Below are positions 1-54,020 of a stretch of 64,000 bases of DNA, one piece after another. Under the pieces are notes generated by a model, which saw only the letters and a program-made list of their open reading frames with translations, made no database searches and was not told the origin of the DNA. The stretch's first letter is position 1. Every line of letters starts with the position of its first letter. The translations under genes and the position numbers were made by a program. The stretch is from contig JAKQCW010000021.1 of NCBI GenBank assembly GCA_029558955.1, positions 895 through 64,894 on the forward strand, given 5' to 3'. Source of the stretch: Chloroflexota bacterium (GTDB lineage: Bacteria > Chloroflexota > Anaerolineae > JAAEKA01).

Positions 1-2546
1 TGGCTGTCGCCAAAGCCGTTGCTTGTCACACGGCTCCAACTGCCCGCGTTGCCGGTGGCGCTGCGCCAGATCTCCGCGCCGCGCGTCGATGAATAGCTCC
101 ACGTGCCGGCGTAGATCTGGCCGCCGAAGACGGCAAAGCGCACCACCTCGCCGTTGTCGACGTTGCCAAAGCCGTTGTTGACCACCCGCGTCCAGTCGGT
201 CCCGTTGGCGCTGCGCCAGACCTGGCCCCCCAGGCTGCTGTTGGTGGCCGCGTTCCAGTTCCAGGTGCCGGCGTAGAGCTGGCCATCGAAGACCAGCAGG
301 TGATCGATGCCGCCGTTGTTGGCATCGCCAAAGCCGTTGGTGGTCAGCGCGCGCCACTGGCCGGCCGTGTCAGCCGTGTTGCGCCAGAGCTGCGCGCCGG
401 TGCTGGGATTGTCCATGCCGGCGTAGAGCAGGCCGTTGAAGTTGACCAGGCTGAGCGTCACGGCGTTGCGCGGGTCGCCAAAGCCGTTCAGATTCCATTG
501 GGTCCAGCCCGGCGTCCCCGGCGCATAGCGTTGCACCCGCTGATTGTCCTGGTCAGCTACCACAAGGTTGCCGACCTGGTCAGCCTGCACCGTCATCGGC
601 AGCCGCAGATTGCCGCTCTCCGGCCCCCACAGGCCGCCGATGGTGGTCAGATAGTTGCCCAGCCGGTCGAAAACCTGCACCCGGTAGTTGCGCTGATCGA
701 CCACCGCCACGCGGCCAGCCGAATCGACCGCCACCGAGACGGGATGGAGATGGTTGAACGAGCTGCTGAAGACGCCCGTCTCGCCGGCGAAGGTGGTGCA
801 GGTATAGTCGCCGCCGGCCAGCACGCATTTCTGGACGCGGTAGTTGTTGGTGTCGGCCACGTACAGCGCGCCGGCCGCGTCGAAGGCCGCGCCGCCAGGG
901 GCGTTGAAGTGCCGGTTGCCGGAGCCGGCCACGCCGGCAACGCCCACGGTCTGTTGGTAATTCCAGGCGCTGTCGAAGATCTGCACCCGCTGGTTGCAAC
1001 TGTCCACCACCGCGATGTTCCCATTCAACGGGCTGATGGCCACGCCGCTGGGGCAGTTGAACTGGTTGTTGCCCACCCCCTGGCTGCCGAAGCTGCGGCT
1101 GAAGCTGCCGTTGGCGTTGAAAACCTGGACGCGATGGTTGCCGGTGTCGGGCGCATAGACCCGGCCGGCTGCGTCGGTGGCCAGGCTGCCCTGCGCACCC
1201 AGGTGCAGCGCGCCCAGGTGGGCGTTGTCGCTGCCCGGCACGCCAGCCTGGCCCACAGTCCACAGCGGCTGGCCGGTTGCATCCTGTTTGAGCAGCCGGT
1301 AGCCCCAGTTCTCCAGCACATAGAGGCTGCCATCGCTGTCCACGCCGACGCCGGCCGGCGTGTTGAAGAGGCTGCTCGTGGTCAGGTAGGGAACCCCCGA
1401 AACGCCAGCCAGCGGGCCTATCGCGACGCCGGCCGCGCTGTAGCGTTGCACAATGTTGGCGTTCCAGTCTGCCACGGTGACCACGCCGTCGGCCGTGACA
1501 GCCACATCGGTGGGATTGGCCAGGCCGCTGGCGAAGACCGCGCAACTGCCGGCCGCGTTGCACTTCTTGACCCGGCCATTGCCGCTGTCGGCGATCCAGA
1601 CATTGCCCGCGCCGTCCACGGCGACCCCTTCCGGGCTGGCCAGTTGGTTGGGACCGCTGCCGGGGCTGCCGGTGCCATGAAAGGTGGTGCAGGACCAGGT
1701 GCCGGCCAGCGTGCAGCGCTGCACCCGCGCGTTGTCGCGGTCGGCCACGTAGAGTCGGTTGGAGCCATCCAGCGCGAGGTGGGCCGGAAAGCTGAAGTGG
1801 CTGTTGTCGCCGCCGGCAACGCCGGTCTCGCCGATGGTCGAATGGTAGACCGGCGTATCGCCGGAGAAGGTGTAGACCTGAACGCGCTGGTTGCCGCTGT
1901 CCGAGACGTAAAGCTTGCCCGCGCTGTCCAGCGCCACCCCGCGCGGGAAGCGGAAGCGGGTGTTGCTGGCGCCGGGGGTCCACGGGCTGCTGGCTGGCAG
2001 CGTCTGGATCAACACACCCTGTCGGGTCAGTTGCTTGACGCCGTGCTGAAAGGCCACCCACAGCGCGCCGTTGCTGTCCACCGCCACATCCTGGGGATAG
2101 GCCAGGAAATCGGCGTGGTACCAGGGCTGGCCCGGCTTGCCGATGCTGAGCTGGCTTTGGCCGGCGGCATCGTATTTGATGACGCGAAAGCCCCGCTCCT
2201 CGACCACATAGATGTAGCCCAGGCTGTCCACGGCCAGCCCGCTGGGGCGGTTCAGGTGCAGGGTGTCGATCTGATAGGGCAGCTCGGTTTGGCCGGCGGC
2301 GGCGACGAAGCGATAGCTGAGCCCCGGCTGGCCCAAGCTGGCAGCCAAGGAGCCGGCCGCGGCCTCGGCCTCGGGCGCGGCCGCGGCCTGGCGGCGCAGC
2401 GCGTTCAGCTCATCGGCCGGGCTGGGTGGAAGGGATTCCGACCGTTGGCCGGCGTCGGGAAGGGGAGACTGCGCCGCGGCCCTGCCCTGCGGCAGCAGGG
2501 GCAGCAAGATCGTCAACAGCAACAACACGCGCAGGGTGGTTTTCAT
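1..2546 (-). CDS. Secreted NHL/beta-propeller repeat protein with C-terminal NGFGD-type repeats (partial; continues past window start)
   Basis: Reverse-strand frame read by hand. Start ATG at complement 2544-2546 followed by signal-peptide-like MKTTLRVLLLLTILLPLLPQGRAAAQS. Repeated YVxD/NxRVQ NHL-like blades, then repeated 'NGFGDxxNG..L.VF.GQLYAGTWN' units. No stop before position 1, so it is absent from the ORF track. Confidence 0.75.
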   Translation of the reverse strand, partial: MKTTLRVLLLLTILLPLLPQGRAAAQSPLPDAGQRSESLPPSPADELNALRRQAAAAPEAEAAAGSLAASLGQPGLSYRFVAAAGQTELPYQIDTLHLNRPSGLAVDSLGYIYVVEERGFRVIKYDAAGQSQLSIGKPGQPWYHADFLAYPQDVAVDSNGALWVAFQHGVKQLTRQGVLIQTLPASSPWTPGASNTRFRFPRGVALDSAGKLYVSDSGNQRVQVYTFSGDTPVYHSTIGETGVAGGDNSHFSFPAHLALDGSNRLYVADRDNARVQRCTLAGTWSCTTFHGTGSPGSGPNQLASPEGVAVDGAGNVWIADSGNGRVKKCNAAGSCAVFASGLANPTDVAVTADGVVTVADWNANIVQRYSAAGVAIGPLAGVSGVPYLTTSSLFNTPAGVGVDSDGSLYVLENWGYRLLKQDATGQPLWTVGQAGVPGSDNAHLGALHLGAQGSLATDAAGRVYAPDTGNHRVQVFNANGSFSRSFGSQGVGNNQFNCPSGVAISPLNGNIAVVDSCNQRVQIFDSAWNYQQTVGVAGVAGSGNRHFNAPGGAAFDAAGALYVADTNNYRVQKCVLAGGDYTCTTFAGETGVFSSSFNHLHPVSVAVDSAGRVAVVDQRNYRVQVFDRLGNYLTTIGGLWGPESGNLRLPMTVQADQVGNLVVADQDNQRVQRYAPGTPGWTQWNLNGFGDPRNAVTLSLVNFNGLLYAGMDNPSTGAQLWRNTADTAGQWRALTTNGFGDANNGGIDHLLVFDGQLYAGTWNWNAATNSSLGGQVWRSANGTDWTRVVNNGFGNVDNGEVVRFAVFGGQIYAGTWSYSSTRGAEIWRSATGNAGSWSRVTSNGFGDS

Positions 2547-2886
2547 TTCGTGGGACTCCTGATGGGGCAAAGAGGCTGGCGCTGCCGTCAGCGGAGCGCC
2601 GGCGGTCCGGCGCGGCCGCTGTCCGCTGTCCAGATTCCTGCCCGAAATCGACTTGGCGCTCTGGCCGGTCTCCGACCGAGCCTCTCCTGACGCTCTGGCC
2701 GGTCTCCGACCGAGCCAGTCCACGGGCAATGGCTGATCATCCAGACGGCGCCAGCAACCCCCGCGGTTCCTTGATGATTCCCGCGGGTAGGGCTATAATG
2801 CCACCGCTCAAGCCATTCGTCAACACGCGGCCTGCGCACACGCTCCCCAAGAGTCACACCTCCCCACCCTCGCCTGGAGAATCGTC

Positions 2887-4088: not shown

Positions 4089-5987
4089 ATGAGTAAGATC
4101 GTTGGAATCGACCTGGGTACGACGAATTCTGTGGTGGCTGTGATCGAGGGCGGCGACGCGGTGGTGATCCCCAACGCCGAGGGCGGCCGCACCACGCCGT
4201 CGGTGGTGGCTTTCACCAAGAACGGCGAGCGGCTGGTGGGCCAGACGGCCCGGCGCCAGGCTGTGGTCAACCCTGAGAACACCGTGGCCAGCATCAAGCG
4301 TTTCATGGGCCGGCGCTTCGACGAGACCAAGGGCGAGCATGTCTCCTTCCAGTTGGTGGAAGGCCCCGCGGGCGACGCGCGCGTGCGCATCCCGCTGAAA
4401 AACAAAACCTATTCCCCCCAGGAGATCAGCGCCATGATCCTGGGCAAGCTCAAGGCTGACGCCGAGGCCTATCTGGGCGAGCCGGTGACGCAGGCGGTGA
4501 TCACCGTGCCGGCCTACTTCAACGACAGCCAGCGCCAGGCCACCAAGGACGCCGGCAAGATCGCCGGGCTGGAGGTGCTGCGGATCATCAACGAGCCGAC
4601 CGCGGCCGCGCTGGCCTATGGCCTGGACAAAAAAGAAAACGAGACGATCCTGGTCTTCGACCTGGGCGGCGGCACCTTCGACGTGTCGATCCTGGAGGTG
4701 GGCGACGGCGTGGTGGAGGTCAAGGCCACGGCTGGCGACACCCATCTGGGCGGCGACGACTACGACCAGACGCTGGTGGACTATGTCGCCGACGAGTTCA
4801 AGCGCCAGGAAGGGATCGACCTGCGCAGCGACCGCCAGGCCTTGCAGCGCCTGAAGGAGGCGGCCGAAAAGGCGAAGATCGAGCTCTCCAGCACGTTGGA
4901 GACTGAGGTCAACCTGCCCTTTGTCACGGCTGACGCCAGCGGCCCCAAGCATTTGCAGATGCCGCTGAGCCGCAGCAAGTTCGAGCAACTGAGCGCGGGC
5001 CTGACCGCCCGGCTGCGCGGCCCCTTCGAGGCGGCCCTGCGCGATGCCAAGCTGACGGCCAAGGAGATCGACGAGGTGGTGCTGGTGGGCGGCGCAACCC
5101 GCATGCCCATGGTGCAGGAGTTGGTGCGCAGCCTGGCCGGCGGCAAGGAGCCGCACAAGGGCGTCAACCCTGACGAGGTGGTGGCGGTGGGCGCGGCCTT
5201 GCAGGGCGGCGTGCTGGGCGGCGACGTCAAGGACGTGCTGCTGCTGGATGTGACGCCGCTGACCCTGGGCATCGAGACCCTGGGCGGCGTGGCGACCCCC
5301 ATCATCGAGCGCAACACCACCATCCCGGCCCGGCGCAGCCAGATCTTCAGCACCGCGGACGACAATCAGACGGCCGTGACGGTGCACGTGCTGCAAGGGG
5401 AACGGCCCATGGCGGCCGACAACGTCAGCCTGGGCCAGTTCAACCTGGAGGGCATCCCGCCGGCCCCGCGCGGCCTGCCGCAGATCGAGGTGGTCTTCGA
5501 TATCGACGCCAACGGCATCCTGCACGTCAGCGCGCAGGACAAGGCCACCGGCAAGCAGCAGAGCGTGACCATCACCGCCTCGACCAACCTGAACAAGGGC
5601 GAGGTGGAGCGCATGGTGCGCGAGGCTGAGATCAACAAGACGGCCGACGAGCGGCGCAAGAAGCTGATCGAGGCCCGCAACGAGGGCGACGCGCTGGCCT
5701 ACAGCGTGGAGCGCAGCCTGCATGACCTGGGCGATAAGGTCGGCGCGGGCGACCGCCAGGCCATCGAGCGGCTGGTGGGCGAGCTGCGCAGCGCGGTCAA
5801 GGGCGAGGACGCCAACGCCATCCGCCAGGCCATGGAGCAGGTGCAGCAGGCCAGCTATCGCATGAGCGAGCAGGCCTACGGCGGCCAGCCTGGCAGCAAC
5901 GGGGCCAACGGCCATCACGGGACCAACGGCCATTACGGCGCAGAAAGCCCGGAGGACGTGGTCGAGGGCGAGTTCCGCACCGTCTAA
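4089..5987 (+). CDS. dnaK: Molecular chaperone DnaK (Hsp70)
   Basis: [43 protein letters not shown] and a C-terminal EEVD-less acidic tail. Full-length 632 aa. GGAG RBS upstream. Confidence 0.97.
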
Positions 5988-6340: not shown

Positions 6341-6823
6341 ATGGCCAGAGAATATCCTGAATATCCCATGGTCGGCGTGGCCGCGATCGTGGTGCGCGGC
6401 GACCAGGTGCTGCTGGTGCAGCGCGGCCGGGAGCCGGCCAAGGGCCTGTGGGGCGTGCCCGGCGGCGTCCTGGATCTGGGCGAGCGCGTGGTCGATGGCG
6501 TCCGGAGGGAGGTGCGCGAGGAATGTGGGATCGAGATCGAGGTTGACGGGCTGCTGGGCGTGTTCGAGCCCATGCAGCGCGACGACGCCGGTCGGCTGCG
6601 CTATCACTACGTGGTGCTGGACTACCTGGCGCGCTACGTTAGCGGGGAGCTGCGGGCCGCGGACGATGCGGACGACGCCCGCTGGGTGACGCTGGACGCG
6701 CTGGAGGGTTTGCCGATGCCGGTCGAAACCAGGGCGATGATCTTGAAGGGGGTTGCACAGGCGACCGGCAATCGGGCCTCCGTGCTGGCCGACCCGGCTG
6801 AAGCCTCGACCCCGCCCGGCTAA
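6341..6823 (+). CDS. NUDIX hydrolase
   Basis: Nudix box GGVLDLGERVVDGVRREVREECGIEIE (GX5EX7REUXEEXGU). The start is ambiguous (6266, 6341 or 6371). The stop lies inside the 22-bp tandem repeat array. Confidence 0.8.
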   Translation: MAREYPEYPMVGVAAIVVRGDQVLLVQRGREPAKGLWGVPGGVLDLGERVVDGVRREVREECGIEIEVDGLLGVFEPMQRDDAGRLRYHYVVLDYLARYVSGELRAADDADDARWVTLDALEGLPMPVETRAMILKGVAQATGNRASVLADPAEASTPPG

Positions 6824-7085
6824 AGCCTCGACTCCGTCCGGCTGAAGCCTCGACCCCGCCCGGCTAAAGCCTCGACTCCGTCCGGCTGAAGCCTCGACTC
6901 CGCCCGGCTAAAGCCTCGACTCCGCCCGGCTGAAGCCTCGACTCCGTCCGGCTAAAGCCTCGACTCCGTGCGGCTAAAGCGTCGACTCCGCCCGGCTGAA
7001 GCCTCGACTCCGTCCGGCTAAAGCCTCGACTCCGTCCGGCTGAAGCCTCGACTCCGTCCGGCTAAAGCGTCGACTCCGTGCGGCT
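6795..7085. repeat. Tandem array of about 13 units of a 22-bp repeat ccggctRaagcctcgactccgY
   Basis: Direct reading shows alternating ccggctaaagcctcgactccgt and ccggctgaagcctcgactccgc units with no spacers. The array overlaps the 3' ends of the convergent nudix and glycosyltransferase genes. Confidence 0.9.
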
Positions 7086-8255
7086 GGGTTGAAGGGCCAG
7101 CAACAGCGCCTCGATTCGAGCCACCCGCTCTTCCCAGGTGTTGGCCTGCGCCACCGCTTGGCGCGCCGCGGCCTGTGCTGCGTCGCCCCGTTGGGCCAGC
7201 GCCTCCTCGATTTGTTGCACCCATGCGCCGACCGTGGCCTCGGCCAGGCGCACTTGGCCGGCGTGCTCCTCGGCCGCCGGCACGCGGGCGCTGACCACCG
7301 GCTTGCCCGCGGCCAGATATTCGTACAGTTTGAGGGAGCTGATGGCCCGCGTTTCGTCGTTGACGCGGTAGGGAATCAGGCATACGTCGCAGTTGGCAAT
7401 GAAGCCGGGCACCTCGGCCACCGGCAACAGCCCCAGAAACCGGACATTGGGCAGCGCCTGGAGCTGGCGCAGCTCGGCCGCACAGCCGGCGTCCCATTGA
7501 CTGCCCGCGAAGGCCAGTTGCCAGTCTGGCCGCGCCAGCGCGAGCTGGGTCAGCAACGCCAGGTCCAGCCGGTTGCTGACGTGGCCGCTGTAGCCCAAAA
7601 GGGGTGGAGCGCCGGGGCGGCGGGGGGCAGCGGCGGCCGCGGCCTGCTGAAAGGCTGCCAGATCGACGCCGTTGGGAACCAGCTCGATGCGCCGGGCATC
7701 AGGCGCCTTGATCTCCAACAGCCGCGGCGCGGTGACGATGGTCAGATCGGCGGCGGCCAGCAGCGCGCGCTCGGCGTGCAGCAGCGCGGCGCGCTGGGCC
7801 TCGCTCAGATGGCTGAACGCGGCGTAGTCGTCGGTGATGTGGTAGACCAGGAGGCTGTGGCGGAAGCTGTCCGCAGCCCAGCGCCATCCGGTTGGTCGAT
7901 AGAGCCAAAGCACGGGGTCATGGCCAACGGCGCTCTGCCCCAGACCGAGACGCCGCAACTGCCAACGCAGATGAGCAGCCAGCAGGCGATCGCTGGCGCG
8001 GTCGAAGAGGTCGCCGGTGGCCCGGGTTGGCAGGGTGGCCGGGATGCGATAGAGCCACAGATTGGCGCGCTCCTGCACCACAGCCGGCCGGCGCACCTGT
8101 TCCCAATGCACGCGGCCCCGTCGCCAGTCGGCCAGGCTGACCCGCGCTGGCTCCACGTAGCACACGCGGTGACGCGCAGCCAGCCGGCTGAAGATCTGCT
8201 GACGGTTGCGCCACAGGTCGTGCCAGGGGTTGGGGGCGAAGACGAGGAAGTCCAT
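7062..8255 (-). CDS. Glycosyltransferase family 1 (GT4-type)
   Basis: The C-terminal half has the GT1 motif region (NVRFLGLLPVAEVPGFIANCDVCLIPYRVNDETRAISSLKLYEYLAAGKPVV). Start taken at MDFLVF (ATG at complement 8253-8255). Confidence 0.8.
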   Translation of the reverse strand: MDFLVFAPNPWHDLWRNRQQIFSRLAARHRVCYVEPARVSLADWRRGRVHWEQVRRPAVVQERANLWLYRIPATLPTRATGDLFDRASDRLLAAHLRWQLRRLGLGQSAVGHDPVLWLYRPTGWRWAADSFRHSLLVYHITDDYAAFSHLSEAQRAALLHAERALLAAADLTIVTAPRLLEIKAPDARRIELVPNGVDLAAFQQAAAAAAPRRPGAPPLLGYSGHVSNRLDLALLTQLALARPDWQLAFAGSQWDAGCAAELRQLQALPNVRFLGLLPVAEVPGFIANCDVCLIPYRVNDETRAISSLKLYEYLAAGKPVVSARVPAAEEHAGQVRLAEATVGAWVQQIEEALAQRGDAAQAAARQAVAQANTWEERVARIEALLLALQPSRTESTL

Positions 8256-8302
8256 GGCTGGGGAGATTGGGGGAGGGGCGATGGGGAGGGGCCGGTGACC
8301 GT

Positions 8303-9712
8303 TCACCGGTGACCGTTCATCGCCTGTCGGTAGAGCGCGGCCATCTGTTGACCGATGCCGGGCCAGTCGAACTGGCGGGCCCAGGCGAGGATCGCCGCCC
8401 GGCGGGACTGCCAGTCGATCTGGCCGGCCTGGCGCAGCGCTTCGGAGAGGGCGCGGGGATCGGCTGGATCGTAGAGCAGACCGAGGAAGGGGGCCGAGGC
8501 CACCGGTTCGACGAAGGCGGGCAGGGCCGGGGCGATCACCGGCTTGCCGAAGCTCCAGGCCAGCATGGCCGCGCCGCTGGTGGTGATCTGGCGGTAGGGC
8601 AACACCACCACGTCGGCCGCGTTCATCCAGTGCTGCACCTGGTCGTTGGGCACGAATCGAGGGTGCCAGAGCACGCGGTCATCGCCGGCGGCCTGTGCGG
8701 CCAGGCGGGCGGCGTAGTCGGCTGGCCGCGGCCGGCCGGCCACCAACAGCCGCGCGTCCGGGTCGGGCAGGCTGTGAAAGGCGGGCAACAGCTCTTCCAA
8801 ACCTTTGTAGGGGCGGATCAAACCGAGGAAGAGGAAGACGGTCGATGGCGACTGGGGGCCGGGCAGGTGAAGCGTGCGGCGGGCGTCGGCGCGGGAGACG
8901 GTGTTGGGATAGGCGTCGATGTAGTGGCCGTGGGGGATGACCGCGATCAAGGGGGCTGGCTCGGTCGGAGACCGGCCAGAGCTGTTGGAGTTGTTGGTCG
9001 TGGCCAGGGGGGCTGGCTCGGTCGGAGACCGGCCAGAGCTGTTCAGATCAGCCTGCTGTGGCCGGTCTCCGACCGAGCCGCCACTCAAATCATGCTGCTG
9101 TGGCCGGTCTCCGACCGAGCCGCCACTCAAATCATGCTGCTGTGGCCGGTCTCCGACCGAGCCGCCACTCAAATCATGCTGCTGTGGCCGGTCTCCGACC
9201 GAGCCACGCTCCCACAGCCGCTGCACCTCCGCGGCCATGTAGCCCGCATGCACGTGCAGCCCGTCGGCCCTGGCCAACAGCCGCTGCAACGCCGCCCCCT
9301 CGACCTCGCCGCCCTCCCCCTCGTGCTGCGCCAGGTTGTGCACGGTGTAGACCAGCCGGCCGCCGCCAGCCTGGTAGGCTGCCAGGGCGGCGAAAAAGCG
9401 TTCCAGAAAGCGGCGGCGGCGGCGGGCAAAGGCCGGCGCGCTGTTCAGGGCCGGCTCCAGCCAGCGCCGCATTCCCCGCCCGGGCAGCCCCCAGCGTCCC
9501 AGCCCGGCCAGACTGCTGTACTCTGGCCGTCCCCACAGCTCCAGCCAGTGCAGATGGAGCAGATCCGCCTGCCAGGCGGCCGCGGGCAGGCCATCCTCGC
9601 CCGGCTCCTGCACCAGGGTCACGGCGACGCCGGCGCTGGCCAGCCCGCCGCAGAGCAAATCGATGTAGGGGTTCGCCTCGCGCGCTGCGGCCGAGAGCAG
9701 GGCGACGTTCAT
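8303..9712 (-). CDS. Glycosyltransferase family 1 carrying an in-frame repeat-element insertion in the interdomain region
   Basis: The C-terminal part has GT1 motifs (GLIRPYKGLEELL, VVVLPYRQITTSGAAMLAWSFGKPVIA). The central part encodes 4x GSVGDRPQQHDLSG plus 2x SSGRSPTEPAPL, which derive from the dispersed element ggccggtctccgaccgagcc. The ORF stays intact. The ATG overlaps the lon-like stop by 4 bp. Confidence 0.75.
   Translation of the reverse strand: MNVALLSAAAREANPYIDLLCGGLASAGVAVTLVQEPGEDGLPAAAWQADLLHLHWLELWGRPEYSSLAGLGRWGLPGRGMRRWLEPALNSAPAFARRRRRFLERFFAALAAYQAGGGRLVYTVHNLAQHEGEGGEVEGAALQRLLARADGLHVHAGYMAAEVQRLWERGSVGDRPQQHDLSGGSVGDRPQQHDLSGGSVGDRPQQHDLSGGSVGDRPQQADLNSSGRSPTEPAPLATTNNSNSSGRSPTEPAPLIAVIPHGHYIDAYPNTVSRADARRTLHLPGPQSPSTVFLFLGLIRPYKGLEELLPAFHSLPDPDARLLVAGRPRPADYAARLAAQAAGDDRVLWHPRFVPNDQVQHWMNAADVVVLPYRQITTSGAAMLAWSFGKPVIAPALPAFVEPVASAPFLGLLYDPADPRALSEALRQAGQIDWQSRRAAILAWARQFDWPGIGQQMAALYRQAMNGHR
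8935..9215. repeat. Composite repeat inside the GT CDS: two inverted copies (ggctggctcggtcggagaccggccagagctgtt) then four direct 42-bp copies (tggccggtctccgaccgagccgccactcaaatcatgctgctg)
   Basis: Read directly. The same 20-bp core occurs intergenically at about 2640-2720 and 49575-49650. Confidence 0.85.
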
Positions 9713-12363
9713 GGCGCCGCGTCGTCGTCAGGCAGATCAGGCGCGGGTCCTGGCCTGGGACCGTCGTCCGACTGCTCCGGCTCATCGCCGGGCGCGGCCG
9801 GTTCATCGCCCGGCAGGCCAGGCTCGTCAGCGGGGCCTTCCGGCCCTTCGCCGGGCAGCGGCGGCTCGCGCGGCGGCTCGGGTGCGCCGTCGCCCTCGTT
9901 GTTCTCCTCGTCATTGCCGGCGCGGGCATCATCTTTCTTGGCCGGCGGCTTGCCGAAGTTCTTGAGGCGCAGGGCCAGCTCGCGCAGCGCGTCGTCCACC
10001 CGGCGGTTGACCGTGCCCTGGGCAAAGCGGCCATCGGCATCGCGCTGGCCGGCCGGCACGCCGGTCAGGATGGCGATGCCCTCGTCGATGGCGCTGACCG
10101 GGTAGATGTGGAACTGGCCCGCGGCCACGGCCTCGACCACATCCTCGCGCAGCATCAAGGTGGCGACGTTGGCGGCCGGAATGATCACCCCTTGCTCGCC
10201 GGTCAGCCCTTTTTCCCGGCAGACATCGAAAAAGCCCTCGATCTTGGCCGTGGCGCCGCCGATGGCCTGGATCTCGCCGTGCTGGTTGACCGAGCCGGTC
10301 ACCGCAATGCCCTGCTTGATGGGCAGACGGGCCAGCGCCGACAACAGGGCGTAAACCTCGGTGCTGCTGGCGCTGTCTCCCTCCACGCCGTCGTAGTTCT
10401 GCTCGAAGGTGATGGTGGCGGTCAGGCTGAGCGGCTTGTCCTGGGCGTATTGGCCGCCCAGGTAGCCGCTGATGATCAACATGCCCTTGTCATGCACCTT
10501 GCCGCTCAGTTTGGCCTCGCGTTCGATGTTGATCACGCCAGATTGGCCGAGGAAGGTCTTGGCGGTGATGCGCGAGGGCTTGCCAAACATGGTGTCGCCC
10601 AGGGCCAGCACAGCCAGCCCGTTGACCTGGCCGATGACTGCCCCAGTCACGTCGATGATCACCGTGTCGTTGACGATGGCCTCGCGCACCCGCTCCTCCA
10701 CCAGGCTGGAGCGATAGCGGCGCTCGTCGATGGCCCGCTGTACATCCTGGCCGGTCACGAAACGGGCCGCGGCCGGCCGGGCGGCCGCCTGCGCCCAGTA
10801 GGCCCCCTCGCGCACAATGTCTGCCACATGGGCGAAGCGGGTGGTCAGCTTGCGTTGATCCTCCACCAGCCGGCCGCTGTACTCGATCACCTTGGCGACG
10901 CCGCTGGCGTCGAAGGGGGGCAGATTCTCCTCGGCGCAGCGGGTGCGGATGAAGCGGGCCACCTTGACCATGTTCTCGGCCGTCCACTCCATCTGGCTGG
11001 TGAAATCGGCCCGCACCTTGAACAGCTTCTGAAATTCGTCGTCGTAGGCGTAGAGCAGGTAATAGGTGTAGGGATCGCCGATCAGGATCACCTTGACCTC
11101 CAGCGGGATCGGCTCCGGGCTGAGGCTGGTGGTGGCGATCATGCTGAACTGAGCGCCCAGCTCTTCGATCTTGACCTGCTGATGGCGCAACGAGCGCTTG
11201 AGCGCCTCGAAGGCCAGGGGCTGGCGCACCAAGGCGCGGGCATCCACCACCAGGTAGCCGCCGTTGGCCCGCAGCAGCGAGCCTCCCTTGATCAGGCTGT
11301 AGTCGGTGACCAGGGTGCCGAACTGCGCCTCCTGCTCGATGCGACCGATCAGGTTGTAGTAGGTGGGGTTGGTTTCGACCACCACCGGCGCGCCCGTTTC
11401 GCCGTCGTGGTCCACTACCACGTTGATGCGATAGTGCTCGAACAGCGATTCTTTCGGGCCAAGCAGCCAGCGGGCAGGGTCGGCCGGCTCCTCTTCGTTG
11501 TCGGAGGCGGGGGATTTGTAGCTTTCGACGTTCTGCGTGATGTGCTGGCGCACGGTGCCCAGATACTCGACCACCTCAGCCCATGCGGCGTAGTCGCCTT
11601 GCAGTTGGTCGAAGCCAGGTCCCACGGTGGCCGCGGCGATCTCGCGGTCGAGATTCTGCAGCAGGTTGGCGGCCTCCTCGCCCAGGGCCTTCAGCTCGCG
11701 CAGCGTCTTTTCCATCTCCTGCCGCAGCTCCGGCTCCTTGGCCTCATAGGCCTGCTGCTGTTCGATGGGCAACTGCTGAAACTGCTCGCCGGTGATGGTC
11801 TTGCCGTCGATCAGCGGGGAAAAGAGCAGGCCCATGGGCGTCTGGACGATGGCGAAACCGCGCACCCGGGCGAAGGCCTCCATGTTCTGGCTGACGTTTT
11901 GACGCCGTTGCTCCAGGTCTTTGACCAGCTCTTTGCGGTGTTGCTCATAGTTTTCGCTCTCGAAAGCCTTGGGGAGCTGTTCCTCCAACGCTTTGAGCAG
12001 CGCGTCGAAACGGTCGCGCAGCGCGCGGCCGCCGCCGGCCGGCAGCCGCAGCGCCAGCGGCTCATCGGGCCGCTCGAAGTTGTTGACATAGCCCCAGTCG
12101 TTGGGCACTGGCCGGCCCGCGGCCTGGCGCTCCAGATATTTGGCGATGGTGGTGGTCTTGCCGGCGCCGGCAGGGCCCAGCGCATAGATGTTGTAGCCGT
12201 AGGAGGGGATGTCAAGGCCAAATTCGATCGCGCGGGTGGCCCGCTCCTGGCCTATGATTTCGTTCAGTTGCTCCAGCTCGTCGGTGGAGTGGAAGTTCAG
12301 ATCGCCGGGCGCACATGCGCGGCGCAGTTGGTCGGCGGTCAGTTCTCGCGGCAGATTGGTCAT
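9709..12363 (-). CDS. Lon-like ATP-dependent protease (AAA+ ATPase domain plus S16 Lon proteolytic domain) with an acidic Pro-rich C-terminal tail
   Basis: Walker A YALGPAGAGKTTTIAKYL. The C-terminal Lon domain has the catalytic Ser (DGDSASSTEV) and Lys (ATAKIEGFFDVC) context. Start chosen at MTNLPRE (ATG at complement 12361-12363, GAGGTG RBS); the ORF could start earlier at 12477. Tail PAKKDDARAGNDEENNEGDGAPEPP... Confidence 0.85.
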   Translation of the reverse strand: MTNLPRELTADQLRRACAPGDLNFHSTDELEQLNEIIGQERATRAIEFGLDIPSYGYNIYALGPAGAGKTTTIAKYLERQAAGRPVPNDWGYVNNFERPDEPLALRLPAGGGRALRDRFDALLKALEEQLPKAFESENYEQHRKELVKDLEQRRQNVSQNMEAFARVRGFAIVQTPMGLLFSPLIDGKTITGEQFQQLPIEQQQAYEAKEPELRQEMEKTLRELKALGEEAANLLQNLDREIAAATVGPGFDQLQGDYAAWAEVVEYLGTVRQHITQNVESYKSPASDNEEEPADPARWLLGPKESLFEHYRINVVVDHDGETGAPVVVETNPTYYNLIGRIEQEAQFGTLVTDYSLIKGGSLLRANGGYLVVDARALVRQPLAFEALKRSLRHQQVKIEELGAQFSMIATTSLSPEPIPLEVKVILIGDPYTYYLLYAYDDEFQKLFKVRADFTSQMEWTAENMVKVARFIRTRCAEENLPPFDASGVAKVIEYSGRLVEDQRKLTTRFAHVADIVREGAYWAQAAARPAAARFVTGQDVQRAIDERRYRSSLVEERVREAIVNDTVIIDVTGAVIGQVNGLAVLALGDTMFGKPSRITAKTFLGQSGVINIEREAKLSGKVHDKGMLIISGYLGGQYAQDKPLSLTATITFEQNYDGVEGDSASSTEVYALLSALARLPIKQGIAVTGSVNQHGEIQAIGGATAKIEGFFDVCREKGLTGEQGVIIPAANVATLMLREDVVEAVAAGQFHIYPVSAIDEGIAILTGVPAGQRDADGRFAQGTVNRRVDDALRELALRLKNFGKPPAKKDDARAGNDEENNEGDGAPEPPREPPLPGEGPEGPADEPGLPGDEPAAPGDEPEQSDDGPRPGPAPDLPDDDAAP

Positions 12364-20398: not shown

Positions 20399-21088
20399 AT
20401 GTTCGACACGCTCCCAGCGCTGCATCGCGAGCTCAGCGCCTGCCGTCTCTGCGCCGAGGCGGGCCATTTTATCGTCTCGCCGCCGATCTTCTCCGGGCCG
20501 GCCGGCGCGCGGCTGATGATCGTCGGCCAGGCGCCGGGGCGGATGGAGCAAGAACGCACCCACCGCCCCTTCAGCGGGCCGGCCGGCAAGCGGCTCTTCC
20601 GCTGGCTGGCCGAGGCCGGCTGGGCCGAGGAAGCGTTCCGCGCCGCCAACTACATGACCGCCATCACCAAGTGCTATCCTGGCCCGCACCCGGCCGGCCG
20701 CGGCGACCGGGTGCCCGGCAAGGAGGAGCAGGCCCTGTGCCGGCCCTGGCTGGAACAGGAGCTGGCCCTGGTGCAGCCGCAGGTGGTCATTCCCGTCGGC
20801 GGGCTGTCGATCCAGCGTTTCCTGGGCAACGGCGCGCGGCTGGTGGAGATCATCGGCCGCGCCTTCGTCCGTCCGACCGACGACCAGCAGTTCACACCCT
20901 GGGCGCAGCAGCATCTGCCGCCCCGCTGCCAGGTCATCCCGCTGCCGCACCCCTCCGGCGCGTCGCAGTGGTTCAACGTCCCGGCCAACCAGGCCCTCCT
21001 GCACCAGGCGTTGGCGCATGTGCGGGCGGCAGGGCGGGATAGCGTTGTGTTTGGCGGGTTTTCAGCAGGCGGTCTGAGTAGCCCGTAA
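20399..21088 (+). CDS. Uracil-DNA glycosylase superfamily protein (family 4/5-like)
   Basis: LMIVGQAPG (GEAPG-type motif), the N-terminal CRLC cysteine pair and HPSGAS near the C-terminus. Confidence 0.8.
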   Translation: MFDTLPALHRELSACRLCAEAGHFIVSPPIFSGPAGARLMIVGQAPGRMEQERTHRPFSGPAGKRLFRWLAEAGWAEEAFRAANYMTAITKCYPGPHPAGRGDRVPGKEEQALCRPWLEQELALVQPQVVIPVGGLSIQRFLGNGARLVEIIGRAFVRPTDDQQFTPWAQQHLPPRCQVIPLPHPSGASQWFNVPANQALLHQALAHVRAAGRDSVVFGGFSAGGLSSP

Positions 21089-21159
21089 TGCGTAATGCGT
21101 AATGCGTAACCGGATGGAGATGTGCAATGGGTGTGAGCATGAGAAGAACGCCCTGTCCG

Positions 21160-21375
21160 TCACAGCCACCGTCCGCGCTTCCGGTTACGGTTACGCATTA
21201 CGCACCGCTGAGTTCCAGCACGAACGACGCGCCGCATGCACCGCAGCCGCCGTCCGCGCTTCCGGTTACGCATTACGCATTACGCACCGCTGCGTTCCAG
21301 CACGAACGACGCGTCACACGCACCGCAGCCGCCGTCCGCGCTTCCGGTTACGCATTACGCATTACTTTTTCTTGG
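21160..21375. repeat. About 84-bp tandem unit (x~2.7) containing ccggttacgcattacgcattac heptamer runs, upstream of pepA; preceded at 21084-21112 by an inverted (gtaatgc)3 array
   Basis: Read directly. cgtccgcgcttccggttacgcattacgc...cgctg.gttccagcacgaacgacgcg repeats three times. Confidence 0.8.
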
Positions 21376-21439: not shown

Positions 21440-22954
21440 ATGCAATTTCACGTCAAACAAGGCTCCGTGCAGGACGAGGCGGCCGATCTGTTGGTTGTCA
21501 ATCTGTTCGAGGGCGTCGCTGAGCCGGGCGGCGCGCTGAAGGCGGTGGATCAGGCGCTCCACGGCCTGGTCACGCAGGTCATCGCCGCCGGCGATGTCAA
21601 GGGCAAGCTGGGCGAGACCCAGGTGCTCTACAGCAACGGCGCGCTGCCCGCGCCGCGGGTGCTGATCGCCGGCCTGGGCAAACAGGCTGATTTCGGCGTG
21701 GCTCAGGCGCGCAAGGCCGCGGCCGCGGCCGCCAAGAAGGCGCGTGAGCTGGGTGTAACCCGCCTGGCCACCGTCGTCCACGGCGCGGGCGCGGGCGGTC
21801 TGGACCCCGCGGCCGCGGCCGCGGCTCTGGTCGAGGGCACGCTACTGGGCAACTACCGCTACCGCGGCTACAAGCGCGCAGAGGGGGACAACGGCAAGCC
21901 GGAGCTGGCTGAGGTGGTGGTGCTGGAGGCCGACGCCGGCAAGCTGGCCGCGGTGCAGCAGGGGGTGGCCGCCGGCCAGGTGGTGGGCGAGGCCGCCAAC
22001 TGGGCGCGCGATCTGATCAATGAGCCGCCCAACTACCTGACCCCCAGCGAGATGGCGCGGCGCGTGGTGCAGCGGGCCGAGGCCGTCGGGCTGAAAGCGC
22101 AGGTGCTGGGCGAGGGCGAAATGGCCGAGCTGGGCATGGGCTCCCTGCTGGGCATTTCCCGCGGCAGCGACGAAGAGGCGCAGTTCATCATCCTGGAGCA
22201 CATTCCCCAGGGCGTGGATCCCGCCAGCCTGTCCACCGTGGCGCTGGTGGGCAAGGCCATCACCTTCGACACCGGCGGCATCAGCATCAAGCCGGCTGAG
22301 AACATGTGGAAGATGAAGGGCGACATGGGCGGCGGCGCGGCCACCGCGGCCGCCCTGGTGGCGGCCGCCAGCCTCAACCTGCCGGTGCATGCCGTGGGGC
22401 TGATCGCGGCCAGCGAGAACATGCCGGGCGGCGACGCGATCAAGCCCAGCGACGTGGTGACGGCCATGAACGGCAAGACGGTGGAGATCATCAGCACCGA
22501 CGCCGAGGGCCGCCAGGTGTTGGCCGACGCCATGTGCTATGCGGCGCGCTACCAGCCCGATGCCATGGTGGACATCGCCACCCTGACCGGCGCGATCGGC
22601 ATCGCGCTGGGGTCGGATCTGGCTGGGCTGTTCTGCGACGACGAGACCCTGCGCGGCCGGCTGACCGCGGCCAGTGAGCTGACCGGCGAGTCGGTCTGGC
22701 CCATGCCGCTCTGGAAGCCCTACCGCAAGCTGTTGGACACCGACGCGGCCGACATGAAGCACACGGGCGGCCGGCTGGGCGGATCGATCACCGCAGCGCT
22801 TTTCCTGAAAGAGTTCGCCGGCGAGCAGCCATGGGCGCACCTGGACATCGCCAGCGTCTCGTGGCAGGAAGAGAACAGCGCCTTCGCAGTGCGCGGGGCC
22901 AGCGGCTTCGGCGCACGGCTGCTGCTGGAGCTGCTGCGCGCGTATGGGCAGTGA
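21440..22954 (+). CDS. pepA: Leucyl aminopeptidase (M17)
   Basis: VGKAITFDTGGISIKP, NTDAEGR-like STDAEGRQVLADAMCYA, and other M17 motifs. Confidence 0.9.
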   Translation: MQFHVKQGSVQDEAADLLVVNLFEGVAEPGGALKAVDQALHGLVTQVIAAGDVKGKLGETQVLYSNGALPAPRVLIAGLGKQADFGVAQARKAAAAAAKKARELGVTRLATVVHGAGAGGLDPAAAAAALVEGTLLGNYRYRGYKRAEGDNGKPELAEVVVLEADAGKLAAVQQGVAAGQVVGEAANWARDLINEPPNYLTPSEMARRVVQRAEAVGLKAQVLGEGEMAELGMGSLLGISRGSDEEAQFIILEHIPQGVDPASLSTVALVGKAITFDTGGISIKPAENMWKMKGDMGGGAATAAALVAAASLNLPVHAVGLIAASENMPGGDAIKPSDVVTAMNGKTVEIISTDAEGRQVLADAMCYAARYQPDAMVDIATLTGAIGIALGSDLAGLFCDDETLRGRLTAASELTGESVWPMPLWKPYRKLLDTDAADMKHTGGRLGGSITAALFLKEFAGEQPWAHLDIASVSWQEENSAFAVRGASGFGARLLLELLRAYGQ

Positions 22955-23191
22955 TCGGTGATCGGTGATCGGTAAGCGGTAAACGGTATCCCGGCGTGGG
23001 GGCAGTTGTCGCCCCACGCCGGGGCCATCGATACGCTGGTCAGCGCCGAAGAACGGCGAGGCCTATCGACGTTGAGAAGCTGTTTGAAGGGCCTCGGATT
23101 CCGGTGGCTGGAAAGCACCGGCTGACAATACAAAGGCCCCTCAGGGCCTGGGATTCCTCAATCCATCAACCCGCCCATTCCCCACCAACCG

Positions 23192-23280
23192 TTCACCGTT
23201 TACCGTTTACCGTTTACCGTTTACCGTTCACCGTTCACCGTTCACCGTTCACCGTTCACCATTCACCATTCACCATCCCC
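23192..23280. repeat. Heptamer tandem array (ccgttta/ccgttca/ccattca x~13) immediately upstream of the MFS gene ATG; an inverted partner (cggtgatcggtgatcggtaagcggtaaacgg) lies at 22955-22990
   Basis: Read directly. Confidence 0.85.
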
Positions 23281-23281
23281 C

Positions 23282-24502
23282 ATGTCCCCCACCCCCATCC
23301 GCTCCTACTCCTACCGCTGGGTCGTGCTCCTGGCCTTCATGGCTGTGATCTTCGTCAACCAGATCCTCTGGATCACCTTTGCCTCGGTCACGGGGCCGGC
23401 CGCGGCCTTTTATGGCGTGTCCGACCTGGCCATCGCCGCGCTGGCGCTGAGCTTCATGGTGGTCTACATCTTCGTCTCGATTCCCGCCTCGTGGGTCATC
23501 GACACCTATGGTCTGCGGGTGGGGATCGGGATCGGCGCTGTGCTGACCGGCGTCTTTGGCCTGCTGCGCGGCCTGGGCGGCGACAGCTACACCACCGTGT
23601 TGATCGCCCAGATCGGCATCGCCGCGGCGCAGCCCTTCCTGCTCAACGCCATCACCGCGGTGGCGGCCCGTTGGTTCCCGCTGGGCGAACGGGCCACCGC
23701 GTCCGGCCTGGCCACGCTCTCCATGTACGCCGGCCAGGTCACCGCCCTGGCGCTGACCCCCTTCCTGATGCTGGCGACCAGCATTCCGGCGGTGCTCCTG
23801 ATCTACGGCGTCGCCGCGGTGATCGGTGCGCTGATCTTCCTGATCTTCGCCAGGGAGCGGCCGCCGACGCCAGCCTCAGCCGCCGGCGCCGACGAGCGGG
23901 CGCTGGTCTTCGATGGCATCAAGCTGGCCCTGCGCCAGCGCGACTTCCTGCTGACCCTGCTGATCTTCTTCATCGGCCTGGGGGTGTTCAACGGCGTGGT
24001 GACCTGGATCGAGGACATCGTGCGGCCGAGGGGCTTCACGCCGATCCAGGCGGGGCTGGTGGGTGCGCTGCTGGTGGGCGGCGGGGTGCTGGGTGCGCTG
24101 ATTCTGCCGGCGCTCTCCGATCGCTACCGGCGACGCGTGCCCTTCATCGTGCTGGCCCTGGCCGCGTCCACCGTGGGACTGGCGGGCATCACCTTTGCCG
24201 GCCAGTACGGCTGGCTGCTGGCCGGGGCGGCGGTGATGGGCTTCTTCCTGCTGGCGGCCGGCCCCATCGGTTTTCAATACGGCGCTGAGGTGGCCTATCC
24301 CGCGCCCGAAGGGACCACCAACGGCCTGCTGCTGATGATCGGCCAGGTGTCGGGCATCCTCTTCATCCTGGCCATGGACCTCTTCAAAGACCCCGCCACC
24401 GGCTCCATGACCCCGGCGCTGCTGGCGTTGATCGGGCTGATGGTCGTGGGCGTGCTGCTCTCCACCCGGCTGCGCGAGTCGAAGATGATCACCGGGGCAT
24501 AG
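23282..24502 (+). CDS. MFS transporter
   Basis: 12 predicted TM segments. The conserved R/K-rich loop after TM6 (SDRYRRRVPFIV) follows the MFS pattern. Confidence 0.85.
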   Translation: MSPTPIRSYSYRWVVLLAFMAVIFVNQILWITFASVTGPAAAFYGVSDLAIAALALSFMVVYIFVSIPASWVIDTYGLRVGIGIGAVLTGVFGLLRGLGGDSYTTVLIAQIGIAAAQPFLLNAITAVAARWFPLGERATASGLATLSMYAGQVTALALTPFLMLATSIPAVLLIYGVAAVIGALIFLIFARERPPTPASAAGADERALVFDGIKLALRQRDFLLTLLIFFIGLGVFNGVVTWIEDIVRPRGFTPIQAGLVGALLVGGGVLGALILPALSDRYRRRVPFIVLALAASTVGLAGITFAGQYGWLLAGAAVMGFFLLAAGPIGFQYGAEVAYPAPEGTTNGLLLMIGQVSGILFILAMDLFKDPATGSMTPALLALIGLMVVGVLLSTRLRESKMITGA

Positions 24503-47329: not shown

Positions 47330-47575
47330 AATTCCAAATATGACGACTGCCAAACTGGAGTCGAGGCTTCAGCCGGGTTTGCACGCAAATATGGCGACTG
47401 CCAAACTGGAGTCGAGGCTTCAGCCGGGTTTGCACGCTCAACTCGCATCGTCCGGACCCGGCTAAAGCCTCGACTCCGCGCCATGTTTGATGACTGCTAA
47501 GCTGGAGTCGAGGCTTTAGCCGGGTCAGCACGCTCGACTCGCGTTGGCCAGACCCGGCTAAAGCCTCGACTCCGC
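47330..47575. repeat. Cluster of direct and inverted copies of the 20-bp element ggagtcgaggctttagccgg / ccggctaaagcctcgactcc forming long hairpins (e.g. a 23-bp perfect stem at about 47490-47565)
   Basis: Read directly. Same core as the 22-bp tandem array at 6795-7085. Another cluster lies at 57235-57345. Confidence 0.85.
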
Positions 47576-47718
47576 GCCATGTTTGGAATTCCTGCATTGT
47601 ACCCGAATGATTTGCCAGACCCCCTTGCCCCGCGTATACTGGACAGCGCCGCGGGCGGGGCGCTGCCGCCCCATACCAAACCAGCCCATCTATCCTCTGC
47701 CAACGAGAAACTATCGCC

Positions 47719-49551: not shown

Positions 49552-49687
49552 GCCGCCGCAAGGCAGCCCAGACATAGCTCGCCGCTCAGGCCGGTCTCCG
49601 ACCGAGCCCCACCCGACCCGCCGCTCGGGCCGGTCTCCGACCGAGCCCCGCCAAGAACCTTGACCCGCGGCAACAGGAGACGTGACC

Positions 49688-50264: not shown

Positions 50265-50445
50265 CCGTAACTCGTAACCCGTAACCCGTAACCGGAAAGA
50301 GCTCTCGCATAAGGGGAAACAATCCGGGTTACGAGTTACGCATTACGCATTACGTCGTCCCATCCACCCAACACCCCTCTCACTCACACGGAAACATTCC
50401 GGGTTACGAGTTACGCATTACGCCTTCCCATCCACCCAACACCCC
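50265..50445. repeat. Inverted heptamer arrays (ccgtaactcgtaacccgtaaccc ... ccgggttacgagttacgcattacgcattacg, twice) upstream of nfo
   Basis: Read directly. The proximal arrays read GYTACGM/GCATTAC in the sense of the downstream gene. Confidence 0.8.
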
Positions 50446-53699: not shown

Positions 53700-54013
53700 G
53701 GATTCGTGATGCGTAATGCGTAATGCGTAATGCGTGATGCGTAATGCGTAATGCGTAACTCGTAACTCGTAACCCGGACTAGCGGCCCGTAACTGGTGAT
53801 TCGTGATCCGGCGTTCGACACCCGGACCCGTGGCTCGTAACGCGTGACCCGTAATGCGTAATGCGTAATGCGTAACCCGGACTAGCGGCCCGTAGCTGAT
53901 GATTCGTGATCCGGCGTCCGACACCCGGACCCGTGGCTCATAACGCGTGACCCGTGACCCAGAGACGACTCCCGTGAACTCCGGGTTACGAGTTACGCAT
54001 TACGAGTTACGAG

Positions 54014-54020
<7 letters not shown>
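53700..54020. repeat. Heptamer arrays (gtaatgc/gtgatgc x~9, gtaactc) plus about 100-bp direct duplication (ccggactagcggcccgta...cgtgacccgta) plus inverted array (ccgggttacgagttacgcattacgagttacgagttacg)
   Basis: Read directly. Sits in the leader of the 51493-53685 gene (minus strand) and downstream of aspA. Confidence 0.85.

Follow-up and report, generated by a model that had tools for sequence, protein, structure and literature searches.

A tagged hairpin repeat forms a copy-number-variable, in-frame cluster in a glycosyltransferase gene of a Chloroflexota bacterium

We analysed a 64,000-nucleotide stretch of DNA from a Chloroflexota bacterium (GenBank assembly GCA_029558955.1, contig JAKQCW010000021.1, positions 895 to 64,894; hereafter the window, in whose own numbering positions are given) in which a short palindromic sequence recurs between genes and, as a cluster, inside a glycosyltransferase (GT) gene. 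This gene (8303..9712, minus strand) encodes a GT4-family enzyme of GT-B fold and 469 amino acids, and its open reading frame (ORF) runs intact through the cluster (8948..9205, minus strand; 258 nt, 86 amino acids), as stated in a preliminary description of this DNA. The repeated sequence is an exact 20-mer, GGCCGGTCTCCGACCGAGCC, which is present ten times in the window, six of them in frame in the GT gene, against a chance expectation of 0.05 (zero shuffles attained ten). Every copy is perfect: diverged copies with one to five mismatches did not rise above the shuffle background in the window. The four intergenic copies form two direct pairs on the plus strand, one at 2658..2718 (cores 2663-2682 and 2697-2716, 34 nt apart) between genes that are divergent by ORF layout, the other at 49584..49649 (cores 49589-49608 and 49628-49647, 39 nt apart) between two co-directional genes. 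The dispersed 20-bp element of the preliminary description is thus real.

Inside the GT gene, four direct 20-mers begin at 9060, 9102, 9144 and 9186 (9060..9205, plus strand, hence antisense to the GT mRNA) and read GSVGDRPQQ(H/A)DL(SG/N). Two further copies (8958-8977 and 9015-9034, together 8958..9034, minus strand) lie within a 57-nt-spaced direct repeat (8948-8986 / 9005-9043) and read SSGRSPTEPAPL. Across the insert the ORF reads GSVGDRPQQHDLSG three times, then GSVGDRPQQADLN, then SSGRSPTEPAPL twice, GSVGDRP and GRSPTEP being one DNA word read from opposite strands. Tandem Repeats Finder reports a 42-nt unit repeated 3.6 times at 9053-9205 with 100% matches; the four direct 42-bp copies described earlier hold as 20-mers at 42-nt spacing, not as full units, since the spacer of the fourth deviates from the other three. 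Where the two orientations meet, a repeat search found a central inverted doublet (9015..9079) with the short conserved flank of the element, its tag, facing inward: the reverse complement of the core, AGAGC, 15 nt, GCTGT and the core, that is, a 25-nt spacer. The same search gave eight inverted pairs of 25-37 nt with 83-96% complementarity. A 301-nt mRNA segment is predicted to fold at -174.9 kcal/mol, compared with -128.8 +/- 4.5 for shuffled sequences (z = -10.2), so the large hairpin proposed for the coding sequence is indeed possible.

The host protein is a GT4-type enzyme of GT-B fold. Pfam assigns Glyco_trans_1_4 / Glycos_transf_1 at residues 290-429 and, below cut-off, Glyco_transf_4 at residues 16-165, and Pfam, AlphaFold and Foldseek agree on the presence of both the two-Rossmann fold and the Glycos_transf_1 C-terminal domain. 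In an AlphaFold model built from a 25-sequence alignment (mean predicted local distance difference test score, pLDDT, 76.7), both Rossmann domains are confident, and the model is matched by Foldseek to MshA, GlgM, PimA, BshA and WaaG. Residues 171-250, flanked by a helix (157-170) and a strand (255-258), have a pLDDT of 27-33 and no secondary structure, and for this reason the insert is predicted to form a disordered surface loop on the margin of the N-terminal domain, ahead of the conserved AVIPHGHYIDAYPN strand. It does not, strictly, separate the two GT-B domains as had been thought; it lies near the hinge, before the last beta-strand of the N-terminal domain, and the low pLDDT agrees with the proposal that it is tolerated in a linker or loop. 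Over 380 gap-free codons, dN/dS is 0.16-0.27 among insert-bearing GT genes and 0.26 between two insert-free orthologues. These values, alike with and without the insert, show that the gene is under purifying selection and is not decaying.

A 99% identical protein of 389 amino acids (P0001) is encoded by an allele that lacks the insert. On one flank, 1143 bp of its contig (L001) are 100% identical to the window, on the other 681 bp are 99.3% identical, and the difference between them is exactly 240 bp, corresponding to window 8964-9203. The junction joins GGC to GAGCC with 1-nt microhomology, and four of the five single-nucleotide polymorphisms (SNPs) of this contig fall inside the 10 nt adjoining it. 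More distant orthologues are syntenic, with a conserved LonC-GT-GT-NUDIX gene order, and carry inserts at one shared codon position, with zero to four forward units and with or without inverted copies. The site holds a single tags-inside doublet (57 nt) in L002 and L113, three direct 42-nt units (two with one mismatch each) in L112, and three direct units plus one inverted copy in L117, whose third unit has its loop split by a nested 21-nt insert; it is empty in L114 and in L115, where it reads GGCGAGCC followed by a C-run. Copy number at this site is thus unstable, as the preliminary description anticipated. Degenerate remnants are found in P0009 and P0024. In a neighbour-joining tree made after removal of the variable columns, insert-bearing GT genes fall in two sister clades and the empty or degenerate states (P0001, P0009, P0024, P0026, P0016/19) are interspersed among them.

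The 21-nt insert of L117 (~5590-5640, GT orthologue P0004) is in frame and splits the 20-mer exactly in its loop, giving GGCTCGGTCGG, CCCCGCCGGGGTGCTACGCAA and AGACCGGCC in succession; it is a nested insertion into the hairpin tip. In L116 (P0015) the GT site is occupied by another palindromic family, AGACCCGAAGGGTTT ... AAACCCTTCGGGTCT (read RPEGFRP ... NPSGLR), which is also found in the same loop in P0022 and P0027; the site therefore accepts several hairpin families. A search for population alleles in JGI metagenomes returned no match to the flank pattern, and the pattern combining the element with VIPHG matched only one contig, already known. A HMMER census with the 86-residue insert retrieved 28 representatives, mostly unrelated low-complexity proteins, short inserts falling below significance.

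These comparisons bear on whether the gene is recently disrupted, as the preliminary description had offered as one option, or the cluster an assembly artefact. An 86-residue repetitive insertion in an enzyme invites such suspicion, and repeats misassemble easily. However, the frame is open, dN/dS stays at the values given above, synteny is conserved, related structures occur at the same site in independent ENA, JGI, NCBI and Logan assemblies, and the empty allele is set apart by a junction and flanking SNPs of its own. We consider a decaying pseudogene or an artefact very improbable.

The orthologues also separate a DNA element from a peptide feature. The preliminary description had reasoned that shared peptides encoded by diverged DNA would argue against a mobile origin. 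The peptides are in fact shared at the same position by orthologues of 67-77% identity, which makes occupation of the site either old or recurrent. The DNA of the cores, however, has not diverged: they are perfect in 16 of 18 cases across GT orthologues despite dS of 0.4-0.7, and the doublets have 15-nt loops of constant length but largely unrelated sequence. Undiverged cores around differing loops argue for a DNA-level element over a conserved peptide feature. Two scenarios would account for this pattern, either a single old insertion, with stems preserved by constraint or by repeated conversion from the genomic pool, or repeated insertion at a hot spot.

The cluster may also be retained to regulate the GT, its mRNA structure tuning translation or decay, or the loop length itself being adaptive, in which case the site would be selected and not merely tolerant. 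A fold far more stable than that of shuffled sequences, the filling of the same site in many orthologues of two sister clades, the presence there of an unrelated second palindromic family and the perfection of cores over dS 0.4-0.7 would all be explained. Yet a near-identical strain and several orthologues do without the insert, the units are all multiples of three and so allow no on/off switching, the element also resides in unrelated genes and mostly in spacers, and the remnants in P0009 and P0024 suggest decay. We regard such a regulatory role as improbable.

What, then, is the element? By itself, the 20-mer folds as a hairpin whose 8-bp stem contains a bulged A and is capped by a 3-nt loop, TCC. 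To define its limits, we pooled 177 copies (from the genome stretches with the exact 20-mer, an initial set of orthologue loci and the window), of which 130 non-redundant ones served for the covariation and tag statistics. The two positions on either side of the 20-mer covary: Watson-Crick pairs are found in 96 copies at -2/+2 (52.5 expected; G:C 47, C:G 45) and in 103 at -1/+1 (70.9 expected). Wobble in these flanking pairs is strand-specific, T.G occurring 18 times and G.T once. Further upstream, -5 is G and -3 is T in 129/130 copies, -4 is C or T, and this tag does not pair with the 3' side. The unit is thus larger than 20 nt, a tagged hairpin of ~27 nt, 5'-G-Y-T-NN-GGCCGGTC-TCC-GACCG-A-GCC-N'N'-3', whose 10-bp stem consists of the 20-mer stem and the two covarying flanking pairs. 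In 918 kb of fetched DNA, 222 copies have at most three mismatches and 184 are perfect; 47 of the 57 substitutions in near-copies affect the loop triplet or the bulged A, in a sample that is biased, the loci having been picked for containing an exact copy and many substitutions coming from non-independent tandem copies. A second core variant, GGCCGGTCTCTGACCGTGCC, is common. None of the six frames of the element contains a stop codon.

Copies occur as singles, as tandem arrays and as inverted doublets built from two variants. Inverted dimers with the tags outside (core A-AGG-reverse complement of variant B, 3-4-nt spacing) were found at ~10 loci. Dimers with the tags inside have a 25-nt spacer laid out as 5+15+5 nt, and this layout of the central doublet of the window recurs in the GT orthologues L002, L113 and L117 and at the unrelated locus L085. 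Among adjacent same-strand copies at all loci, head-to-tail arrays have spacings of 25-59 nt with a mode of 42 nt (10 loci, ~7 independent). The core also serves as a module within larger palindromic composite repeats.

A scan of one genome per species for the exact 20-mer found it in at least 109 genome stretches, mainly of Chloroflexota and Planctomycetota, several metagenome-assembled genomes (MAGs) having at least ten loci. Among the matches listed, the Chloroflexota hosts are, by record titles, Anaerolineae, Caldilineales, Thermoflexia and other MAGs; many Planctomycetota MAGs also carry the 20-mer, including on a 2.59-Mb contig, as do one Cloacimonadota and one Longimicrobiales bin. Planctomycetota copies constitute a subfamily of their own, GTTGT-core-ACRCCGCCGACCGAAGGTCTCCCGAGC, and are therefore not contamination. 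Chloroflexi-type copies are also present on 14 IMG/VR contigs; phage-like contigs of this collection differ by the 42-nt unit, with two copies in L126 (4673-4734) and L127 (2255-2316) and one in L130 (7428-7447).

Of 126 clusters, 28 stood at locus edges and were unevaluable; the remaining 98 comprised 60 with no open frame, 29 with an open frame lacking coding signal and 9 that were coding-like, so that ~90% of evaluable clusters lie outside clear coding sequence. In-frame copies were found in TrmFO (GSVGDRPE), GatB (GPVSDRAN), a CydD-like ABC transporter, a Planctomycetota oxoprolinase (GRSPTEP twice), a debranching enzyme (ARSETGQ twice) and a membrane glycosyltransferase-like protein (VARSETGH), the same DNA being read in at least four frames across coding copies. 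For GatB, the closest orthologue (91% identity, 479 vs 493 amino acids) lacks exactly 42 nt and reads GGC GAG at the empty site; filled and empty forms share at most a 3-nt ACG repeat. GGCGAG is thus read at empty sites of two unrelated genes (the L001 junction, the L115 GT site and the L119 GatB site), in the contexts GTGGC-GAGCC and CTGGGCGAGCC for the GT and CACGGCGAGGGC for GatB, and the stem of the element itself has GGC...GAGCC at its base. The motif may reflect a preferred target, the trace of an excision or coincidence.

The genic copies make it hard to maintain that the repeats belong to the protein, as a low-complexity linker (GSVGDRPQQ / GRSPTEP) conserved in this GT family. Such a linker would explain why the peptides sit at the same position in orthologues of moderate identity, but both peptides derive from a single DNA word, read from its two strands; that DNA also lies between genes, and other ORFs translate it as ARSETG, PVSDRA or AGLRPS. 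It stays identical where neighbouring loop codons are scrambled, and the insert is missing from the 99% identical allele and is predicted to be disordered. This explanation is largely refuted and is the least probable of those we considered; the preliminary description was right to see a dispersed DNA element and not a peptide motif.

The genomic context of the copies raises another possibility, that the element is a genome-wide RNA or DNA signal, such as a terminator lacking a U-tract, an mRNA-stabilising hairpin or a protein-binding site (with a GGA or UCC loop depending on strand), and that genic copies are by-products. Copies are found between co-directional genes in 51 cases, between divergent genes in 8 and between convergent genes in 5, many of them 10-60 nt downstream of a gene end, and a T-run follows some, for instance CGCTGTTTTCA. 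The structure-preserving covariation, the strand-specific T.G wobble and the conservation of the exact sequence across phyla would also be expected of a signal. Conversely, copies point with or against transcription almost at random (29 clusters sense, 22 antisense), they exist between divergent genes and within coding sequence on both strands, and a generic hairpin function is unlikely to have led by convergence to one and the same 20-mer. No Rfam family covers it: with Rfam 15, the window and six element-rich loci gave no match at gathering score except a tRNA, and only generic long hairpins below threshold; E-value cut-offs likewise brought up nothing of note. We judge a genome-wide signal unlikely, if slightly less so than a role in regulating the GT.

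Several other repeats accompany the element. Orthologous spacers to window 2546-2743, in L114 (16953-17035) and L115 (18641-18770), have a perfect intergenic hairpin, TTCGCAAGTTGCCGG/CCGGCAACTTGCGAA, with a loop larger by ~50 nt in L115; in the window this entire spacer is replaced and contains the two 20-mer copies. As a filled/empty pair for the copies at 2663 and 2697, the L114/L115 spacer lacks the copies and is too rearranged to define insertion ends. L115 has an insertion sequence with a DDE_Tnp_1 transposase (11124-12290) between the two glycosyltransferase genes. A further family of small repeats, CCGGCT[A/G]AAGCCTCGAC[T/C]CCG[T/C], is present at window 6794-7085 and 47335-47585 and at ~3075-3100 in L014; it forms a 22-nt x13 tandem array, which starts within the final codons of the adjacent glycosyltransferase gene (7062-8306, minus strand), and inverted pairs at 47335-47585, and the L014 copy directly adjoins a copy of the 20-mer. 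Heptanucleotide tandem repeats (CGTAATG/TTACGCA, ACCGTTC, CCGTAAC) at 21084-21365, 22951-22988, 23188-23300, 50265-50354, 53705-54018 and 8292-8319 are reminiscent of the cyanobacterial STRR repeats. The C-terminus of the GT is encoded by a 14-nt x2 repeat, and heptamer-derived 7-residue repeats (LTVNHSP / FTINHS) make a second length-variable site, upstream of RPYKG, in the GT genes of L112, L114 and L117. Finally, a 135/270-bp tandem coding repeat at 35565-36351 (x5.8 / x2.9, 72-89% matches; starting TGGGAGAACCTGGGCGGC..., W-E-N-L-G-G) probably encodes a repeat-domain protein unrelated to the 20-mer.

We searched for genes that could mobilise the element. When 1,655 ORFs were clustered all against all, the recurrent neighbours belonged to ordinary families only (ABC ATPase, histidine kinase, sulfatase and similar). 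A motif search for HUH (histidine-hydrophobic-histidine) plus tyrosine, and phmmer with the Y1 protein of L107, were applied to 7,759 ORFs from all fetched DNA (~1.1 Mb) and yielded the L107 gene alone. The L107 locus itself, from a Planctomycetota MAG (4100-5310), has a Y1/HUH transposase gene of IS200-like or RAYT-like type (4373-5219; a RAYT is a tyrosine transposase that goes with REPs, repetitive extragenic palindromes) between hairpin repeats of its own, CCTCACGCGGAGCGTGAGG and CCTCTCGCTCCGCGAGAGG, which also have a TCC loop and are distinct from the 20-mer. A 20-mer copy lies 1.1 kb downstream, directly after a stop codon.

Altogether, we favour, with some confidence, the explanation that the cluster is a tolerated, copy-number-unstable array of an element like REP and the bacterial interspersed mosaic elements (BIMEs) in a permissive GT loop, the gene being neither a pseudogene nor the host of a classic MITE (a miniature transposable element with inverted repeats). 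A doublet or cluster would have entered the disordered GT4 loop before the last beta-strand of the N-terminal domain, and selection would spare in-frame variants only, so that the enzyme remains functional and the element ends up in the protein as filler peptide. From there, copy number would drift between 0 and 6 by tandem duplication and deletion of the 42-nt unit and by deletion of the whole palindromic cluster; arrays may grow and shrink through slippage, and the whole palindrome may be lost through hairpin-mediated deletion. As every unit is a multiple of three, such changes alter loop length and not an on/off state. By analogy with RAYT and IS200-type (IS200/IS605) HUH transposases, the element may spread in trans through a single-strand DNA enzyme that recognises hairpins, a route that the strand-specific wobble and the unpaired 5' tag would fit. 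Old copies might remain near perfect through selection for recognition, gene conversion from the genomic pool, or both.

Several observations weigh against this explanation. In the ~1.1 Mb of fetched DNA no mobilising enzyme was found, the single Y1/HUH gene (L107) being flanked by another repeat, and the GT and GatB filled/empty comparisons gave no clear target-site duplication or defined element ends. Orientation is unbiased relative to transcription, as given above, and shows no association with local GC skew (Fisher p = 0.65), leaving a strand-specific hairpin without obvious directional context. The explanation leaves unaccounted for both the GGCGAG of the empty GT and GatB sites and the lack of decayed copies in the window, and the perfection of orthologous cores over dS 0.4-0.7 exceeds what is expected of a purely selfish neutral insert. 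The tag, G-Y-T, is unlike GTAG and CGTC, by which the described superfamilies of REPs are defined (PMC3733652) and neither of which is present among the copies here. Lastly, two phyla share the exact core, whereas REP/RAYT systems are usually lineage-specific and REPINs (REP doublets forming hairpins) have been described as vertically inherited.

These points leave room for a bolder proposal, which we advance tentatively and consider doubtful, though less so than the alternatives above. The G-Y-T hairpin would represent an undescribed superfamily of miniature elements in Chloroflexota, Planctomycetota and their phages, its copies actively kept perfect at orthologous sites over dS ~0.5 by sequence-specific machinery other than a classical RAYT; the element may prefer to land in hairpin tips or at GGC^GAG-like sites and would repeatedly donate new, length-variable peptides to housekeeping enzymes. 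The proposal draws on the lack of decayed copies in the window and on the restriction of variation at the fetched loci to loop and bulge.

Under the explanation that we favour, the locus is a natural example of a tiny structured DNA repeat joining a working enzyme, documented by filled and empty alleles of 99-100% identity and by orthologues that form a graded series, and it introduces a repeat family with a tag unlike those of the GTAG and CGTC families. In the annotations of Chloroflexi and Planctomycetes MAGs, its hairpins give rise to spurious ORFs and to strange stretches of low complexity (GSVGDRPQ, GRSPTEP, ARSETG and others); they also break short-read assemblies, and the element could serve as a strain-typing marker. 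If its identity across phyla reflects a dedicated enzyme, it would also be a handle on new hairpin-specific DNA or RNA machinery.

How does the element compare with known systems? A CRISPR array, in which repeats of 24-48 nt alternate with unique spacers of about their own length, usually beside cas genes, was rejected, as the spacers here are only 8-27 nt long and near-identical within an array (tandem duplicates) and no recurrent neighbouring gene emerged from the 1,655 ORFs clustered; so were an integron attC site, whose GTTRRRY core is absent, and a phase-variation switch, all units being multiples of three. The MITE likeness drawn in the preliminary description extends to a non-autonomous, structured and dispersed element found in phage-like contigs; it stops at the architecture, for there are no terminal inverted repeats of 15-30 bp around a body of 70-300 bp and no convincing target-site duplication, and the organisation is that of REPs and BIMEs instead. 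Small dispersed repeats (SDRs) of heterocystous cyanobacteria are reportedly ~20-30 nt long, non-coding and nested in one another; as far as this account goes, the element resembles them in its very small size and in nesting (the 21-nt insert in the loop of the L117 copy) and, at this coarse level of comparison, differs in sequence and hosts. Rickettsia palindromic elements (RPEs) measure ~100-150 bp and are specific to Rickettsia. Like them, the element consists of palindromic repeats that stand in frame in functional genes and are translated as tolerated extra surface segments; in contrast, its unit is 20-27 nt (42 nt with spacer), it forms copy-number arrays, and its hosts are Chloroflexota and Planctomycetota.

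The closest likeness is to REPs, BIMEs and REPINs. REPs and BIMEs are tagged stem-loops that form dimers with tags outside or inside and clusters carrying flanking DNA (PMC3733652), and REPINs are associated with RAYTs (Bertels and Rainey, 2011; PMC3116915). The element shares with these an imperfect palindrome of 20-40 nt, one end of which bears a conserved tag that stays unpaired, numerous dispersed and mostly extragenic copies with occasional in-frame clusters within known genes, inverted dimers with tags out or in, dimers that combine two variants, and tandem clusters in which flanking DNA is included. It differs in its unusually common head-to-tail direct arrays and in that no RAYT turned up beside its copies in the ~1.1 Mb searched, where the lone Y1 gene goes with other repeats. 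Intragenic REPs and RPEs have been described as in-frame palindromic repeats (Di Nocera et al., 2013; PMC3733652), and neither the 20-mer DNA nor its peptides had a match in the searchable literature. In-frame insertions of REP-like elements are thus already known, and it is this family, its tag and its spread across phyla that appear to be undescribed.

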